From positions 26,056-90,055 of the forward strand of contig JADFUR010000008.1 of assembly GCA_015222055.1 (NCBI GenBank): a stretch of DNA of 64,000 bases, in the 5' to 3' direction. This document shows, in pieces, positions 1 through 7,057 of the stretch. The translations under genes and the position numbers were made by a program. Source of the stretch: Bacteroidota bacterium (GTDB lineage: Bacteria > Bacteroidota > Bacteroidia > Bacteroidales > B39-G9). How positions within the stretch are numbered: position 1 is the first letter of the stretch; every line of letters begins with the position of its first letter. Under the pieces are notes generated by a model that made no database searches, was not told the origin of the DNA, and saw only the letters and a program-made list of their open reading frames with translations.

Positions 1-2469
1 GGCGAAGATTATAATGCAAGTGCTTCATTTGGTAGTGGTGACCAGATTGGAACATCAGCATCATATGTCGTTTATGAAGGATCTAGCAGCACTGTTAACC
101 TTACTAATTTAGAAGCAAACAGAACCTATTATTTTAAAGTTTGCGAATTTAATAATTCAGATGGCAATACGAAATACAATACATCATCAACAGAGACAGG
201 GAATCCAAATAGCCACTCAACCGCTAATGCTGCTCCAACAACTCAAGCTTCAGGTATTACATTTTCAAATGTTGATGCAACAAAATTAACTATTAATTGG
301 ACATCCGGCAACGGACAAAATAGAATTGTAAAAATGAACACCAGCAACTCATTTACAGACCCAACTGACGGGACAGACCCAAGTGCTGATAATGCATATG
401 GTTTGGGTGAACAAGTTGTTTATAACAGTACCGGAAGCACTGTAAATATTACAAATTTAGATGCTAGCACCACCTACTGGTTCAGAGCATATGAATATAA
501 TAACAGCGGAACAAGTACAATGTATAACGTAAGTACAGCTACTGATAACCCTGACAGTATTCTGACACTAAAAAATGCACCTACAACTCAAGCAACAAAT
601 ATTACATTTGCTAACCTAGCATCATCATCAGTTACTATTAACTGGGAAAACGGGAATGGTGAGAATCGCATTTTAGTTGCAAAAAACGGAACCGATATTT
701 CAACTCCAACAAATAACACTTCATATTCAGCAAATACTATTTTTGGTAGTGGAGATGTTACGGGAGCAGGATGTTATGTGGTTTATAATGGATCGGGAAA
801 CACGGTTGATGTTACAGGCTTAACACAAAATGAAACTTATGAATTCGGAGTATTTGAATTTAACAATTCGGGAACATCTTATGCTAAATACCACAACGTA
901 ACTGCTACGGGAAACCCACAAACCTTAGCCACTTCGGGATATACACAATGGACAGGGACAACATCTACAAGTTGGGAGGCAACAGAAAACTGGTCATCTT
1001 CATCAGTTCCAACATCGGGTACTGATGTTGTAATTAAATTGGCTACAAACAAACCGGTAATTAGTTCTAATTCTCTTTGCAATAATATTACAATTGAGCC
1101 TGGAGCATTCTTAACAATTAATTCGGGATATACTCTCAGTGTTTCTGGAGACCTAACAATAGAAGCCTCTTCTTCATATTTGGGGTCTTTAATAGAATTT
1201 GGTGACGGTTCTGTATCTGTTACAGGATCATCAAAAATTCAAAATTATATTTCAGGCACCACAGATTGGCATTACTTATCTTCACCAATAACAAGCACCA
1301 CTGTTGATTTTCTTACAGATTATTATGTAAATAGTTACAATGAATCAGTCCCAAGTTGGACACACTTAATCGCTGGCGATGCTTTAAATGTTATGCAAGG
1401 CTATTCTGTAAAAAATTCATCTGGAAATGCAACTGTTACATTTAACGGAACACTAAACACAGGCAGTAAAAGCATCTCAACAAATAACTCAACACCAACT
1501 GACGATAGCTATGGATGGAACTTAGTAGGAAATCCATATCCTTCAACGATTGACTGGAAAGCCATCGGTTGGACTAAATCGAATGTTGATAATACGGTTT
1601 ATGTTTATCTTGGAAATTCACAATATTCAGCATATAACGGCACGACATCTGCCATGATAAATGGTGGTAGCAGATACCTTTCATCAATGCAAGGATTTTT
1701 TGTTCGGGCTTCTGGAAATGGAACGCTTGGCGTAACAAACAGCGTGCGAGTTGATAAAACAAGGGCGTATTTTAAAAAAGCTGATGAATTGCCAAATAAT
1801 TTATTAAAATTACGTGTTGAAAAAGGGGAGTTTAATGATGAAGCTGTTGTATTATTCTACCAAAATGCCACACAAATATTTGATGGTGAATTTGATGCTT
1901 ACAAAATGTTCAGCTATAATGAAGACATTCCTGAGCTCTACACTTCGACGCAATTAGGAGAGCAACTTGCAATTAACACGTTGCCTAACATATCAAATAA
2001 TGAAACAATCCCATTAGGTTTCAAAACAGAGCAAAGTGGAGATTATACTATTACTGCCGTTGAAAACACATTTGATGCTAACACCTCTGTTTTATTAGAA
2101 GACTTAGAAAAAAAGGAAGTTATTGATTTGAAAATATCTGACTACTCTTTCTATTCCAACTCTGTTTATAACTCCGACAGATTTTTATTACATATTGTTA
2201 TGGAACCATCATTTATAATGAAAAATATTGAAAAAGATAATTCGGTAAGTATTTATTCTTTTAGGAATAGCATTTACATAAAAAATAATTCTCAAAATAT
2301 CTCTAAAGGGGAAGTCGTGGTTTACAATATTTTGGGGAAAGAAATAATTAGAAAGCAATTAAATAACACGACATTAAACAAAATTATGATTAATAAAATT
2401 TCTGGAAATTATATTGTACGAGTATTAACAAATAATAAAATTTTTTCTGAAAAAGTTTTTTTAAAATAA
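1..2469 (+). CDS. Secreted surface protein, 5'-partial: at least 3 fibronectin-III-like repeats plus a T9SS type-A C-terminal sorting domain
   Basis: Frame 1 is open from nt 1 into ORF 334..2469 (..APTTQASGITFSNVDATKLTINWTSGNGQNRIVK-MNTS..), so the start lies outside the window. Modules of ~116 aa repeat (APTTQA[ST]xITF..INW..GNG.NRI..Y.F...E[YF]NNSG). The C-terminus ..VVVYNILGKEIIRKQL..GNYIVRVLTNNKIFSEKVFLK is a typical Por/T9SS CTD. Confidence 0.85.
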   Translation, partial: GEDYNASASFGSGDQIGTSASYVVYEGSSSTVNLTNLEANRTYYFKVCEFNNSDGNTKYNTSSTETGNPNSHSTANAAPTTQASGITFSNVDATKLTINWTSGNGQNRIVKMNTSNSFTDPTDGTDPSADNAYGLGEQVVYNSTGSTVNITNLDASTTYWFRAYEYNNSGTSTMYNVSTATDNPDSILTLKNAPTTQATNITFANLASSSVTINWENGNGENRILVAKNGTDISTPTNNTSYSANTIFGSGDVTGAGCYVVYNGSGNTVDVTGLTQNETYEFGVFEFNNSGTSYAKYHNVTATGNPQTLATSGYTQWTGTTSTSWEATENWSSSSVPTSGTDVVIKLATNKPVISSNSLCNNITIEPGAFLTINSGYTLSVSGDLTIEASSSYLGSLIEFGDGSVSVTGSSKIQNYISGTTDWHYLSSPITSTTVDFLTDYYVNSYNESVPSWTHLIAGDALNVMQGYSVKNSSGNATVTFNGTLNTGSKSISTNNSTPTDDSYGWNLVGNPYPSTIDWKAIGWTKSNVDNTVYVYLGNSQYSAYNGTTSAMINGGSRYLSSMQGFFVRASGNGTLGVTNSVRVDKTRAYFKKADELPNNLLKLRVEKGEFNDEAVVLFYQNATQIFDGEFDAYKMFSYNEDIPELYTSTQLGEQLAINTLPNISNNETIPLGFKTEQSGDYTITAVENTFDANTSVLLEDLEKKEVIDLKISDYSFYSNSVYNSDRFLLHIVMEPSFIMKNIEKDNSVSIYSFRNSIYIKNNSQNISKGEVVVYNILGKEIIRKQLNNTTLNKIMINKISGNYIVRVLTNNKIFSEKVFLK

Positions 2470-2503: not shown

Positions 2504-2534
2504 TTTGAATCAAACTTCTTTTATTGTAATTTTG
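2504..2534 (+). promoter_or_regulatory. Candidate Bacteroidota-type promoter for the small-protein/exosortase pair
   Basis: TTTG at 2504-2507, a 19-nt spacer, then TAATTTTG at 2527-2534 (fits the TAnnTTTG -7 consensus), 19 nt upstream of the ATG at 2554. This is a motif match only, in AT-rich DNA. Confidence 0.35.
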
Positions 2535-2553: not shown

Positions 2554-2856
2554 ATGAAGAAAAATTTTTTATACATAATATCTTTTTTATTTATATTAAC
2601 CGCATTTCCATCAAATTCTATGGCAAATGGCGATGATATATTTAAAAACAAAAAAAATGTTTCTCGAAAAAAAGGGAACTTTCATAAAGATGAAAAATTT
2701 GGCACAAGAGAAAGCAAAGCATTACCATTAATGCCTCCTGATCCTAGTGGTGGCGATGGTGGATACCCTGTTCCAATTGCAAACGGATTAAACATTTTAT
2801 TGATTTTAAGCGGAATTTATGTAACACGTAAAATAAAAAAAGAAATAAAAAAATAG
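2554..2856 (+). CDS. Small secreted protein with a tripartite C-terminal tail (Gly/Pro motif, TM helix, Lys/Arg cluster); candidate exosortase substrate
   Basis: Signal peptide MKKNFLYIISFLFILTAFPSNSMA, a Lys-rich middle, and the C-terminus PPDPSGGDGGYPVPIANG-LNILLILSGIYV-TRKIKKEIKK. A promoter-like boxes motif lies upstream. The gene is 30 nt upstream of the exosortase-like gene on the same strand. Confidence 0.6.
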   Translation: MKKNFLYIISFLFILTAFPSNSMANGDDIFKNKKNVSRKKGNFHKDEKFGTRESKALPLMPPDPSGGDGGYPVPIANGLNILLILSGIYVTRKIKKEIKK

Positions 2857-2886
2857 ACGCCCATTCTATTATTCACTAATTAAATT

Positions 2887-3495
2887 ATGCTATTTTTTCA
2901 GAAATATAAAATTCAATTTGAAAAATATAAAATTTTATATAAAAAAAATCGCAAATTATTCAATAATATCTTTCGATTTATATTTGCTTTAATTTTTGGA
3001 TTAATTTTATCTGTATTAATTACCGAAATAGACCCATTTAAAAGTTATCTTAAAACAACTTCAATACCTGACATATTAACAAAAAGTTTAGTTTACACTA
3101 GCAATTTTTTATTAAACTTATTTGGATTTGATACTTACGCCCATAATAATTTCTTACAAATTAGAGGAACTAACGGCATTAGATTTGTTTATAGCTGCAT
3201 AGGAATTAGACACATGACATTTTTTGCAGGATTTATCATATCATATTATGGTAAATTATTAAATAAAATCTGGTACATTATAGTGGGTTTTATAATTCTA
3301 ATCTTTATAAATTCATTTAGAGCAAGCATTATTTGCATAACTCAGTTATACTATCCCGAATATTTTCAATTTGTTCATTATTACTTTACACGAATTATTA
3401 TGTATGTCTGCATATTTGTATTATGGATGATTTGGATACGATTTTTTGCAACAAAAAAAAGACTGCCTGAAACAGACAGTCTTAAAACAGAATAA
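2887..3495 (+). CDS. Exosortase/archaeosortase-family membrane protein, short XrtF-like form
   Basis: A 202-aa polytopic protein. It has Cys in VYSCIGIRH (C-x-G-[IL]-R), Arg in INSFRAS (N-x-x-R), and His in YYPEYFQFVHYYF followed by FVLWMIWIRFF. The order and spacing match what I recall for exosortase catalytic residues. The size fits the short Bacteroidota XrtF class. Confidence 0.6.
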   Translation: MLFFQKYKIQFEKYKILYKKNRKLFNNIFRFIFALIFGLILSVLITEIDPFKSYLKTTSIPDILTKSLVYTSNFLLNLFGFDTYAHNNFLQIRGTNGIRFVYSCIGIRHMTFFAGFIISYYGKLLNKIWYIIVGFIILIFINSFRASIICITQLYYPEYFQFVHYYFTRIIMYVCIFVLWMIWIRFFATKKRLPETDSLKTE

Positions 3496-3654: not shown

Positions 3655-5808
3655 TTATTTCAAATAAGGTTTAACGACTTCAATAACTTCGGGTAAGTCC
3701 ATACCAATATTTTTTAGGTGTTCAACAGTAGGAATACCTTCTTTAGTCCAACCTCTACGAAAATAAACAGCATCTAATAATTTTTCGTACTGCTCTTCTC
3801 TAAATTTACGAGTAATTGCAATTTTTTCTTCAGTAGTTTTTCCAACAGGGTCAATACCAATTTTCTCTTTCATTTGAGTATCGTATCTATCTGCACGAGA
3901 TTCATATTCGGTAACTGTAACAGGGCCGCAAGCACGGTATGGCTGAGCATCATTTTCTCTTACTAATTTACCCCTACGCAAATTAAAAATTCTTTGGAAA
4001 TTATAAACTCTTTCAGATTGAAGAATCATTTCATCAGTATCTATAGGTTTTCCGGTAACAGCAGTAAAAATTTTCAAATAATTATCAACGTGCTCAGGTA
4101 CTTTAGCTGGCTCATCTGTTTCTGCATTATTTGTAGGTTCAACATCATTCCATGGCAATTTACATAATCCCATTAAACCAAACCAGGTTCTAAACATTGG
4201 GAAATAATGTAAAGCTTCAGCTTTATCTTTAAAAGTAGGAATTTGGTTATTTACCATATCCATAAAAATCAACCAAGCTTCATCGTGTTGAGGTCCTTTA
4301 TTTGTCATAGCAAACCCACCTTGTTGAGCCAAAGATTCTTTTGAAACATATTCAGAATATTCAAGCCCTTTACTTTCCATACCAATATCTTGTAAAAAGC
4401 TTGGATCTGCACCGTATTTTTCAGCAAATGTTTTTTTCATTCGACGAATACCTTGTCCAGCAATTTTACCAAAACCTTCGCCTCGAGCAAGTTGATGGAT
4501 TAATTCTAATGCAGCCTCAGCATTTCCGAAATTTAATTCTAAGCCACCTGTTATTTCTTTATTTAAGATGCCAGCTTCATAACATTCCATAATAAAAGCA
4601 AGCAAAGTACCCCAAGAGATAGTACAAATTCCATAAGTATCACAATAAAAATTTGCTTCAATAATATAATCAGGGTCAAAAATACCACAATTTGAACCTA
4701 AACCAGCAGCATTCTCATATTCTGGTCCATCAACAATAACTTGTTGCCCTTTATAAGGACCGGTTTTTAATTCAAAACCATCAACACCTTTTGAACAAGC
4801 CATTGTACATCCAAGCCAGCAACCATCAGGTATACCTTGTGTGAATTTACTTTCCCACACATGAGAATCTATTTTAGGTGTGTCTTTATGGCTTCCATAC
4901 TGATAATTACAAGTTGGTAAAAGGTCATAGTCATCCATTATTTCAACTAAGTGAGCTGTTCCTATTTTTCTCATTTTGCACTGCTCATCGTCAAGCTCAA
5001 TCATTTCTTTAGTAAACCTGCGTCCTCTTTCTTTTATAGTATCAAGGTCAACAACATTATTTGCATTCCCTTTTATTCCGGGTACTTTTGCAACAATAGC
5101 CTTAATATGCTTGTCTCTTAAAACAGTACCTGTTCCTCCTCTACCAGCTTGTTTAAATCTAACGCCTTTTCTTCGTTTGTCGTAAAAGCTGAAATTTAAC
5201 ATCCCAATAAAAGAATTTTCTGCAGCAGCTCCTGTAGAAACAATACCAATATTCATTTTTTCTTTTTCATTATCGGCAAACATATCTGTTAATTGCTCAG
5301 CTAAAATGTGACTATCAACAACGTCGTCAGGAGCTTCATAAATTTCAACACTTCCATTTACTCCATCAATATAAATAATAAGTTCCTTATCTGATTTCCC
5401 CTGAATTTCAAGAGCATCATAGCCTGAAAATTTTAAAAATGGTCCGAAAAAACCACCTACATTGCTATCCATAACAAAATCGGTAGGCGATATTGTAACA
5501 ACAATCGATTTTCCTGCTCCAGCATATTGAGTTATTCCCCCAATAGGACCTGAAGAAATAATTATTTCGTTTTCAGGATCATTCCATTTTGTATTAGGAG
5601 TTGTCGCATCCCACAATAATTTCATCCCGAAACCTTTTCCTCCAATAAATTTATCTTTCATCAACTCAGTAACAGGTTTTTCTTTTACTAAATTATCAGA
5701 AACATTGATGTAAAGGATTTTACTAGTATAACCCTTATCAAGAGGTGTTATATTATAAGAATATTCCTTTAACAATTTATGTGTTTTTTTCATGTCTACA
5801 GCACTCAT
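3655..5808 (-). CDS. aor: Aldehyde:ferredoxin oxidoreductase family protein (tungsto/molybdopterin, 4Fe-4S)
   Basis: 717 aa. The N-terminal AFOR_N-like region contains ..KDKFIGGKGFGMKLLWD.. A Cys cluster GCWLGCTMACSKG is present, and the C-terminal domain contains ..FGLMGLCKLPW.. A GGAGG box ends 7 nt upstream of the ATG. Confidence 0.85.
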   Translation of the reverse strand: MSAVDMKKTHKLLKEYSYNITPLDKGYTSKILYINVSDNLVKEKPVTELMKDKFIGGKGFGMKLLWDATTPNTKWNDPENEIIISSGPIGGITQYAGAGKSIVVTISPTDFVMDSNVGGFFGPFLKFSGYDALEIQGKSDKELIIYIDGVNGSVEIYEAPDDVVDSHILAEQLTDMFADNEKEKMNIGIVSTGAAAENSFIGMLNFSFYDKRRKGVRFKQAGRGGTGTVLRDKHIKAIVAKVPGIKGNANNVVDLDTIKERGRRFTKEMIELDDEQCKMRKIGTAHLVEIMDDYDLLPTCNYQYGSHKDTPKIDSHVWESKFTQGIPDGCWLGCTMACSKGVDGFELKTGPYKGQQVIVDGPEYENAAGLGSNCGIFDPDYIIEANFYCDTYGICTISWGTLLAFIMECYEAGILNKEITGGLELNFGNAEAALELIHQLARGEGFGKIAGQGIRRMKKTFAEKYGADPSFLQDIGMESKGLEYSEYVSKESLAQQGGFAMTNKGPQHDEAWLIFMDMVNNQIPTFKDKAEALHYFPMFRTWFGLMGLCKLPWNDVEPTNNAETDEPAKVPEHVDNYLKIFTAVTGKPIDTDEMILQSERVYNFQRIFNLRRGKLVRENDAQPYRACGPVTVTEYESRADRYDTQMKEKIGIDPVGKTTEEKIAITRKFREEQYEKLLDAVYFRRGWTKEGIPTVEHLKNIGMDLPEVIEVVKPYLK

Positions 5809-6144: not shown

Positions 6145-6582
6145 ATGAATTATAAAAAGCTATATTTTCTTATTTTAGTAATTGGAATTGTTGCACTTTC
6201 AATAATATCTTGGTATACATTAACAATCAATATTAATCAAACAACACCTACTATTGTTAATATTTTTTTACATTACAATAAATTGTTTATTTATTGCAAC
6301 TTGCTTCTTTTTATAATTTTATTAATCATATCAAATCTCATTTATTTAAAAACTTTATCTAAATATTTTTTCACCTTAAGTGTTATTTTTTTTATTGCAT
6401 TCACAATCACAAACAATTTTTATTTCTCAAACTATATTCTACATCATTTTTCCGGATACGGACTTAATGAAGAAAACTTCAATCTTTTAAAACTAATTGG
6501 TGCTTTCTCATGTTTGGCAACAATAATAATTACAGCAATTAATTATACAACAATAAGAAACCTGAAAAGAAGAAAAAAATAA
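6145..6582 (+). CDS. Hypothetical integral membrane protein (about 4 TM helices, basic C-terminus)
   Basis: A 145-aa ORF that is strongly hydrophobic and ends in NLKRRKK. I recognised no family. Confidence 0.55.
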   Translation: MNYKKLYFLILVIGIVALSIISWYTLTININQTTPTIVNIFLHYNKLFIYCNLLLFIILLIISNLIYLKTLSKYFFTLSVIFFIAFTITNNFYFSNYILHHFSGYGLNEENFNLLKLIGAFSCLATIIITAINYTTIRNLKRRKK

Positions 6583-6664: not shown

Positions 6665-7057
6665 ATGAATATTGAGCCATTAGTTATTGAAGCAACTTCA
6701 AAAACGCCAAAAGTAGTTTTTGACCCTGATAATAATTTTTATGAATTTTCTGGTCGTTCACTACCTGAAAATGTTGTAAGAACATACGAACCTATTCTAA
6801 AATGGATTGATGCAAACATTAATGAGGTTCCAACTCCAATTGAGATTAATTTCAGGATGGACTATCTCAATTCTGCTTCTGCAAAAATGGTTTCTCTTAT
6901 ATTATCTAAATTTGAAGAATTTTATAAACAAAACAACAAAATTCTTATTAATTGGTATTATTTTTTTGATGATGACGACATTCAATCTGAAGGAGAAATT
7001 TATGCAATGTTAAAGAAAGTACCTATTAAACTTATTGGAATTAAAGACGAAGATTAA
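6665..7057 (+). CDS. SiaC-like DUF1987 family protein (partner-switch phosphoprotein family)
   Basis: The pattern ..TPKVVFDPDNNFYEFSGRSLPENVVRTYEPILKWI..INFRMDYLNSASAKMV..INWYY.. matches the G.S.PEN...Y.P...W / YLN[ST].S.K / W.Y layout I recall for SiaC/DUF1987. Confidence 0.7.
   Translation: MNIEPLVIEATSKTPKVVFDPDNNFYEFSGRSLPENVVRTYEPILKWIDANINEVPTPIEINFRMDYLNSASAKMVSLILSKFEEFYKQNNKILINWYYFFDDDDIQSEGEIYAMLKKVPIKLIGIKDED

Follow-up and report, generated by a model that had tools for sequence, protein, structure and literature searches.

A small secreted protein and an XrtX-like exosortase encoded side by side in Bacteroidales: a probable sorting-signal/exosortase pair related to XrtX/PID-CTERM

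Introduction

A catalytic triad of Cys, Arg and His has been proposed for the exosortase/archaeosortase superfamily, and the sorting signals of exosortases, archaeosortases and rhombosortases are reported to share a layout in which a short signature abuts a transmembrane (TM) helix (bioRxiv 10.1101/2023.06.07.544157). The sole experimentally dissected member is archaeosortase A (ArtA), in which Cys173 and Arg214 are essential (PMC9263693) and which couples removal of the C-terminal helix to lipid attachment (PMC9263693; bioRxiv 10.1101/2023.06.07.544157). In the present work, we analyzed a stretch of 64,000 nucleotides (nt) from a Bacteroidota bacterium of the order Bacteroidales (contig JADFUR010000008.1, positions 26,056 to 90,055 of the forward strand; hereafter the window), which has a GC content of 29%, and focused on two adjacent genes, one for a secreted protein of 100 amino acids (aa) and one for a short exosortase of 202 aa. 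The comparisons described below suggest that these genes probably constitute a dedicated sorting-signal/exosortase pair and a divergent sister of the XrtX/PID-CTERM system.

The latter is represented in NCBIfam by three consecutive models, i.e., NF046080 (PID-CTERM sorting domain), NF046081 (XrtX) and NF046082 (XrtX-associated membrane protein), while no paper in the searched literature mentions XrtX or PID-CTERM. Another short exosortase of Bacteroidota is XrtF (TIGR04128), which is accompanied by a system-associated membrane protein (TIGR04127; the pair is Fjoh_1448/1449 in Flavobacterium johnsoniae). Surface colonisation and biofilm formation require both xrtF and its partner, the phenotypes resemble those of mutants in the type IX secretion system (T9SS), and the substrates are stated as unknown by the authors (PMC10936215). 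The PEP-CTERM/exosortase A system (XrtA/EpsH; TIGR02602, TIGR03109) shares with the pair described here the superfamily, the tripartite logic of the signal and an association with exopolysaccharide (EPS) loci (bioRxiv 10.1101/2023.06.07.544157), but it comprises a larger enzyme with 8 TM segments and many P-E-P targets per enzyme, whereas the window enzyme has one small, apparently dedicated target, with no PEP motif in its tail. ArtA/PGF-CTERM of Haloferax volcanii differs in being archaeal, in its PGF motif and in its large S-layer substrates; furthermore, the third essential residue of ArtA is reported as Arg253, whereas the sortase family of the window has an invariant His164.

Results

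The two genes and their products

Both genes lie on the + strand, with a spacing of 30 nt between them. The following elements were recognized, with the basis of each given in brackets:

2554..2856, + strand, stop codon at 2854-2856: small gene for a secreted protein of 100 aa, the candidate sortase substrate (open reading frame and family conservation)
Start of 2554..2856, + strand: predicted Sec/signal peptidase I signal peptide, aa 1-24, MKKNFLYIISFLFILTAFPSNSMA followed by NGDD…, cut between SNSMA and NG (sequence)
Within 2554..2856, + strand: Lys-rich region, aa 25-60, which contains KKGNFHKD (KKGNFHKDEKFG) (sequence)
2734..2787, + strand: signature block PPDPSGGDGGYPVPIANG, aa 61-78 (family alignment, hhalign, match of family member P0166 to NF046080)
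2788..2853, + strand: C-terminal hydrophobic helix LNILLILSGIYVT, then the basic cluster RKIKKEIKK, then the stop codon (sequence; conserved in the family)
2887..3495, + strand: short polytopic exosortase gene, 202 aa, XrtX-like, below all subtype cutoffs (NCBIfam, Pfam, invariant columns, HMMER profile search, neighbour-joining tree)

An earlier note, made from the sequence alone, had described an XrtF-like exosortase next to a candidate substrate. Both of its open reading frames (ORFs), with their coordinates and strand, and all the peptide strings that it quoted are present in the sequence. The tripartite C-terminal layout that it ascribed to the 100-aa protein is genuine as well: the signature, which ends in PVPIANG, abuts the TM helix LNILLILSGIYVT with zero spacer, and RKIKKEIKK forms the extreme C-terminus.

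The enzyme is an exosortase closest to XrtX

The 202-aa protein scores above the thresholds of the exosortase/archaeosortase signature TIGR04178 (44.1 bits, cutoff 23) and of the Pfam family PF09721 (38.2 bits, cutoff 25.7), which bears out its original assignment to the exosortase family, and its hydropathy indicates several membrane segments. In an alignment of 50 relatives sharing 23-46% identity with the window protein, C104, N142, R145 and H164 are the sole invariant columns. All three catalytic candidates named in the earlier note are therefore found among them, i.e., Cys104 (codon tgc, 3196-3198), Arg145 of the N-x-x-R motif (aga, 3319-3321) and His164 (cat, 3376-3378), which agree with the triad proposed for the superfamily (bioRxiv 10.1101/2023.06.07.544157), and the invariant Cys and Arg match the essential Cys173 and Arg214 of ArtA.

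With respect to subtype, the best NCBIfam model is that of XrtX (NF046081), which gives 107.7 bits and so falls under its cutoff of 170, while XrtY (NF046083; 58 bits, cutoff 160) and the XrtA/EpsH-type model TIGR02602 (23.2 bits, cutoff 105.55) score lower still. The XrtF label attached to the enzyme in the earlier note is ruled out by a score of 62.1 bits on TIGR04128, whose cutoff is 90; among the curated families, XrtX is the nearest. The same note had remarked that the multi-TM partner of XrtF is not adjacent, and indeed TIGR04127, the exosortase F system-associated membrane protein, has no match among the neighbours scanned. The locus thus resembles the XrtF system in having a short Bacteroidota exosortase, but differs from it in lacking a TIGR04127-type partner and in having an adjoining candidate substrate, none being known for XrtF. 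A polytopic ORF of 145 aa at 6145..6582 was considered as a hidden XrtX- or XrtF-associated partner and rejected, as it matched neither NCBIfam nor a hidden Markov model (HMM) of XrtX-associated proteins.

Close homologues of the sortase are rare: eight proteins with 67-76% identity were found among 5.8 billion, and a HMMER profile search that covered 1.84 billion cluster representatives exhaustively returned 1,211 sortase relatives, just eight of them at E<1e-30. When the 20 nearest representatives were scanned singly, XrtX was the best model for all of them and all were under its cutoff (60-166 bits). The sortases that are paired with the small-protein family described below (the PPDP-Gly6 family) score 68-102 bits on the XrtX model, and bona fide XrtX proteins in the same match list score 181-216 bits on NF046081; one of these, P0061 from Pontibacter cellulosilyticus, bears the public name 'exosortase X'. 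In a rough neighbour-joining tree, calculated without bootstrap, the sortases paired with the PPDP-Gly6 family are all located in one half and XrtX in the other. A search of PDB sequences with the 50-sequence profile yielded two insignificant matches (E about 0.06, anti-CRISPR proteins) and no solved homologue, and a pattern search of genome contigs with the sortase alignment produced pattern matches and no confirmed relatives. In current annotation, the members of this sortase clade and their small proteins are called merely 'archaeosortase/exosortase family protein' or 'hypothetical protein'.

The small protein belongs to a conserved family

Given that the small ORF is short, of low complexity and Lys-rich, that it resides in a genome of 29% GC and that it has no match in Pfam or NCBIfam, it might have been a chance ORF in AT-rich DNA standing before an orphan sortase. 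This reading is refuted, and we assign it practically no probability. The ratio of nonsynonymous to synonymous substitution rates (dN/dS) is 0.06-0.35 for the small gene at a near-saturated dS of about 0.7-2.3, next to 0.14-0.28 for the sortase, so the small gene is under purifying selection. Its homologues extend down to about 30% identity in Bacteroidales, Salinivirgaceae and 'Chlorobiota' metagenome-assembled genomes (MAGs), with architecture and position retained. These dN/dS values, together with conservation in 18 independent loci, indicate that the small ORF is no chance occurrence.

A profile search collected 29 family members of 70-109 aa, all of them unnamed or called 'hypothetical protein', some of which derive from Salinivirgaceae and 'Chlorobi' MAGs. 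They share an architecture composed of a signal peptide, a basic KKGNFxK region, the signature PPDP-GGGGGG-[ND]P[IV]P[IV]-x-x-G, a TM helix and a basic tail. The invariant columns are P61, P62, D63, P64, G67, G70, P72, P74, I75 and G78. It follows that the recognition motif suggested earlier, 'G-Y-P-V-P', does not hold, since the family-invariant residues P72, P74, I75 and G78 spell P-x-P-I-x-x-G instead. A profile of the tail, run against the 218 ORFs of at least 40 aa in the window, detected the small protein alone (66.8 bits; next best 5.4). Even at E<=10, neither the small protein nor its tail matched any NCBIfam or Pfam model, NF046080 included.

Linkage between the small gene and the sortase gene

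The small ORF is located directly upstream of the sortase gene, on the same strand, in seven out of seven close relatives for which upstream sequence is available (L001/L002, L003/L004, L005, L007, L008 and the partial L006, following our numbering of related loci), and the gap between the two genes amounts to 30-32 nt in four of these loci and 232-239 nt in two. The genomic context of four distant members of the small-protein family (<=36% identity) shows an exosortase of 183-203 aa at 9-38 nt downstream in three cases (L009, L010, L011). A scan of 185,579 species-representative genomes with an IUPAC DNA motif gave 25 matches, 14 of which were due to chance (high-GC), while all the 11 true ones corresponded to the small protein and came from low-GC Bacteroidales, Salinivirgaceae or 'Chlorobiota' MAGs. 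Among the ten distant loci found through the small protein, the sortase is adjacent in five (L009/L019, L010, L011/L016, L028, L037), and in a sixth (L027) it lies at a distance of 2.2 kb. Taking all 18 independent loci together, the sortase lies within 2.3 kb of the small gene in 13 and immediately next to it in 12; of the 11 adjacent loci with a measured gap, nine have 9-38 nt.

Upstream of the pair, one further element was noted:

2527..2534, + strand: candidate Bacteroidota-type -7 box TAATTTTG (TAnnTTTG), 27 nt before the ATG of the small gene (consensus match only)

The TAnnTTTG motif, which has a background frequency of about 1 per kb per strand, occurs 27-31 nt ahead of the ATG of the small gene in L001, L005, L008 and the window itself; in L010 it occurs at -19. 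The gaps between the small gene and the sortase gene hold neither a -7 box nor a predicted terminator. A scan for sigma-70 promoters found 11 as compared with 11.7 expected from shuffled sequence, though the sigma-70 model is not apt for Bacteroidota. The small gene and the sortase gene are a conserved pair and are probably co-transcribed; the box preceding the small gene and the absence of boxes and terminators from the gaps are consistent with this. Hence, as regards the pairing of substrate and sortase put forward in the earlier note, the conservation of the gene pair stands and a dedicated relationship is its best reading. A hairpin of 11 pairs with a T-run (3459-3483, - strand), which overlaps the last codons of the sortase (…KRLPETDSLK…), is probably the terminator of the convergent aldehyde:ferredoxin oxidoreductase gene, about 170 nt past its stop.

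Comparison with XrtX/PID-CTERM

For comparison, we used 57 metagenomic loci that are related to P0061, a bona fide XrtX protein. In nine of them (L039, L061, L071, L072, L074-L076, L081, L087) a secreted protein of 61-100 aa is encoded 16-108 nt upstream of XrtX, and in seven further loci (among them L057, L059, L062, L063, L067 and L068) a small PID-CTERM protein is found 0.5-4.5 kb downstream. The small proteins neighbouring XrtX end with …PPGGCWPPSxC-[IV]P[IV]DGG, a TM helix and a basic tail, the C-W-P-P-x-x-C element often standing just before P-I-D-G-G, and score 34-48 bits on NF046080 (cutoff 26), while a protein of about 160 aa encoded just downstream of XrtX matches NF046082.

The tails of both families can be aligned. 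With hhalign, the two small-protein alignments matched at 96.7% probability (E=4e-10) over 26 columns that place PIPIs-G on iPiDGG in register, although scores of segments made of a TM helix plus basic residues are partly compositional. In addition, family member P0166 scored 14.6 bits on NF046080 (model positions 2-23), with P-I-S on P-I-D, and an HMM built only from the XrtX-neighbour proteins detected, out of the 218 window ORFs, the small protein alone (23.2 bits, E=6e-7; next best 3.4). On the strength of these three comparisons, P74-I75-A76 of the window protein appears to correspond to P-I-D. The Asp of P-I-D is not conserved in this in-register alignment: the window has P-I-A and its relatives have P-I-[ASG] or P-V-D.

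The similarities between the window pair and XrtX/PID-CTERM (an example being WP_187066529.1 from Pontibacter cellulosilyticus) can be listed as follows: (i) a short Bacteroidota exosortase, about 170-200 aa in length, that shares the invariant Cys, N-x-x-R and His, (ii) a Sec-secreted, Pro/Gly-rich protein of 60-100 aa encoded directly upstream, which ends with P-[IV]-x-G-G, a TM helix and a basic tail, and (iii) the presence of Wzc-type genes near some loci of both, Wzc being a neighbour of XrtX in six. In L055, L060, L062, L063, L067 and L068 the Wzc-like gene is immediately upstream of XrtX.

There are differences as well. The window pair misses both curated cutoffs, with 107.7 bits versus 170 for the sortase and no NF046080 match (cutoff 26) for the tail. 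An HMM of XrtX-associated membrane proteins detects them in 43 of the 57 XrtX loci versus, at E<=1, none of the 14 loci considered here (the window, searched over its full length, and 13 relatives). The small-protein family of the window has no C-W-P-P-x-x-C element but has its own KKGNFxKD and PPDP-Gly6-NP(I/V)P(I/V) modules, and carries Ala, Ser or Gly in place of the Asp of P-I-D. Finally, it constantly occurs with a giant protein with fn3 repeats and a T9SS sorting domain encoded upstream, whereas a related gene is present in one XrtX locus (L072). Judged by these comparisons of sequence and gene order, the window pair is a divergent, unannotated sister of the curated XrtX/PID-CTERM system, with a signature and a gene context of its own, and neither XrtF nor a new kind of system. 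The expectation in the earlier note that such a pairing would be new was thus overstated, as a small substrate beside a short Bacteroidota exosortase had already been curated by NCBIfam in the form of XrtX/PID-CTERM.

Gene neighbourhood

The pair is surrounded by the following genes:

1..2469, + strand: 3' portion of the gene for a large surface protein that has fn3 repeats and, at its C-terminus, a T9SS type A sorting domain (TIGR04183, 28.4 bits, cutoff 23; weak fn3 and Pur_ac_phosph_N matches)
3655..5808, - strand: tungsten-type aldehyde:ferredoxin oxidoreductase, 717 aa, convergent to the sortase gene (AFOR_N/AFOR_C in the L001 and L006 homologues)
6145..6582: conserved polytopic ORF, 145 aa (homologue in L001, E=5e-62)
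6665..7057: SiaC-family regulatory phosphoprotein (PF09345, 108 bits)

The ORF of the fn3/T9SS protein is open from base 1 of the window (frame 0), so it is cut by the window edge. Its homologues (E from 1e-50 to 0), which elsewhere measure 829-2712 aa, are encoded immediately before the small gene wherever a related locus includes upstream sequence. Divergent Wza/Wzc-like polysaccharide-export genes flank the cassette in L001, L003, L010 and L012, and by analogy with L001, L010 and L012 such genes would lie upstream of the window. The pair is embedded in a conserved surface-structure module, with the fn3/T9SS giant upstream and Wza/Wzc where more flanking sequence is available. The context of XrtF, with its T9SS-like phenotypes, is echoed by this T9SS/EPS gene context.

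On the other side, the convergent order of the sortase and aldehyde:ferredoxin oxidoreductase genes is kept in the close relatives L001, L002 and L006, and the presence of the latter gene suggests an anaerobic lifestyle of the host. The SiaC gene and the 145-aa ORF are situated 2.6-3.2 kb downstream of the pair, and in L009-L011 a SiaC gene is found within about 3.6 kb of the cassette.

A group of loci that we termed type II (L012, L020, L022, L031, L035) retains the fn3/T9SS giant, and the small gene is followed there by genes for a SpoIIE/PP2C-type phosphatase (absent from L035), a DUF4384 protein, a lipoprotein of 191 aa and a protein of 432 aa. The SiaC protein, together with the SpoIIE phosphatase of the type II loci, may point to regulation of the surface module by partner switching.

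Discussion

Proposed function and alternative readings

The mechanism that we propose is modelled on ArtA/PGF-CTERM and on the common arrangement of a signature that abuts the helix. The 100-aa precursor would be exported by Sec, and its signal peptide would be removed after SMA24. The C-terminal helix would then keep the precursor in the inner membrane, RKIKKEIKK facing the cytoplasm; in consequence of this orientation, the signature P-V-P-I-A-N-G would be placed at the periplasmic face of the membrane. There, Cys104, aided by Arg145 and His164, would attack at the P-[IV]-x region abutting the helix. The helix and the basic tail would thus be removed, and a Lys-rich peptide of about 50 residues (NGDD…PPDPSGGDGGYPVPI-) would be freed or transferred to an acceptor such as a lipid or a polysaccharide. 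Cleavage itself, its site (P-I-A, aa 74-76), the acceptor and the biological role are postulated, whereas the family membership of the enzyme, its invariant residues, the conservation of the small gene and the selection on it, the gene order and the likeness of the tail to PID-CTERM are observed. Most likely, the processed peptide would contribute to cell-surface, EPS or biofilm architecture.

Several observations weigh against a dedicated substrate and sortase: (i) there is no experimental record of cleavage for the window family nor, in the searched literature, for XrtX, (ii) the window tail has no NF046080 match at E<=10 and its counterpart of the Asp in P-I-D is Ala, (iii) the hhalign score that links both tails is, as mentioned above, partly compositional, (iv) an AlphaFold2 model of the sortase, calculated from a nine-sequence alignment, reached a predicted local distance difference test (pLDDT) score of 48 and a predicted template modelling (pTM) score of 0.33 and is unusable for the geometry of the triad, (v) in the five type II loci the small gene has an intact NPIPISGG tail and no sortase in the 3-6 kb of downstream sequence available, and (vi) what most constantly accompanies the small gene is the giant fn3/T9SS protein rather than the sortase.

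Points (i), (v) and (vi) would suit a different reading, with the small protein as a bitopic membrane protein that loses its N-terminal signal peptide but otherwise stays uncleaved. Its C-terminal helix would then serve as a permanent anchor, and it would work with the fn3/T9SS giant or the Wza/Wzc exporter, e.g., as a cationic periplasmic tether, while the sortase would act on other substrates or non-proteolytically. Such a reading accounts for the fn3/T9SS protein being the only universal neighbour and for the five type II loci in which no sortase is near. We nevertheless consider it rather unlikely, because conservation within the protein peaks in the Pro/Gly signature directly before the helix, a feature for which a simple anchor would have no use, and because this signature is in register with a curated sorting signal. 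Moreover, the sortase is immediately adjacent in 12 of the 18 loci, mostly across a very short gap, and no other candidate substrate bearing the tail was found in the 64 kb or among the true matches of the motif scan of 185,579 genomes.

If a dedicated pair is nonetheless accepted, the product of cleavage could be a peptide that is released rather than anchored. The predicted mature part, with its approximately 52 residues, isoelectric point of 9.5 and 10 Lys/Arg, could belong to the precursor of a cationic signalling or antimicrobial peptide, for which the exosortase would act as a maturation protease and not as an anchoring transpeptidase. One substrate per sortase would be in line with this, as would the fact that the role of exosortases as transpeptidases is unsettled in the literature (bioRxiv 10.1101/2023.06.07.544157). 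We regard it as improbable, since the conserved cassette contains no gene for immunity, an ABC exporter or a receptor kinase, its conserved context is that of a surface structure (the T9SS adhesin-like protein and Wza/Wzc), and a peptide freed into the periplasm would have no evident route across the outer membrane.

The Gly-rich tail could also be taken for a GlyGly-CTERM-like signal, cut by a rhomboid protease of the rhombosortase type. L009, L010 and L011 do have a rhomboid gene some 3 kb away from the cassette, and P0180 has a very weak GlyGly-CTERM match (10.8 bits, E=0.54). However, in these three loci the rhomboid gene belongs to a housekeeping block on the other strand, the small protein of the window has no GlyGly-CTERM match, and the conserved adjacency is with the exosortase. 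As the 64-kb window contains no homologue of rhomboids, and none was called in the 20.6 kb available for L001, we rejected processing of this kind, to which we would give hardly any weight.

We thus favour, as the probable function of the two genes, a dedicated sorting-signal/exosortase pair, in which the 100-aa protein would be the substrate of the adjacent XrtX-like enzyme.

Significance

Substrates of Bacteroidota exosortases are experimentally undefined, and the window locus and its XrtX/PID-CTERM cousins offer a pair of one enzyme and one substrate. Although such a pair is unsurprising to a specialist, it is clean and testable, and its target, which would comprise about 75 residues after removal of the signal peptide, is suited to the questions of hydrolase versus transpeptidase activity, cut site and acceptor. 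Furthermore, annotation would gain from new HMMs of the sortase clade and of the small protein with PPDP-Gly6-NP(I/V)P(I/V).

A bolder and rather doubtful proposal is that the fn3/T9SS giant, the small protein and the XrtX-like sortase form one surface module that couples two sorting pathways. The exosortase would install the Lys-rich peptide covalently on an envelope lipid or on the polysaccharide exported by Wza/Wzc, and the peptide would serve as an anchor or adaptor for the fn3 giant. If this were true, it would provide the first defined substrate of Bacteroidota exosortases and a direct mechanistic link to T9SS-dependent biofilm phenotypes. The invariant link of the small gene to a giant T9SS cargo, along with its link to Wza/Wzc, points to an unstudied surface or EPS module of anaerobic Bacteroidales.

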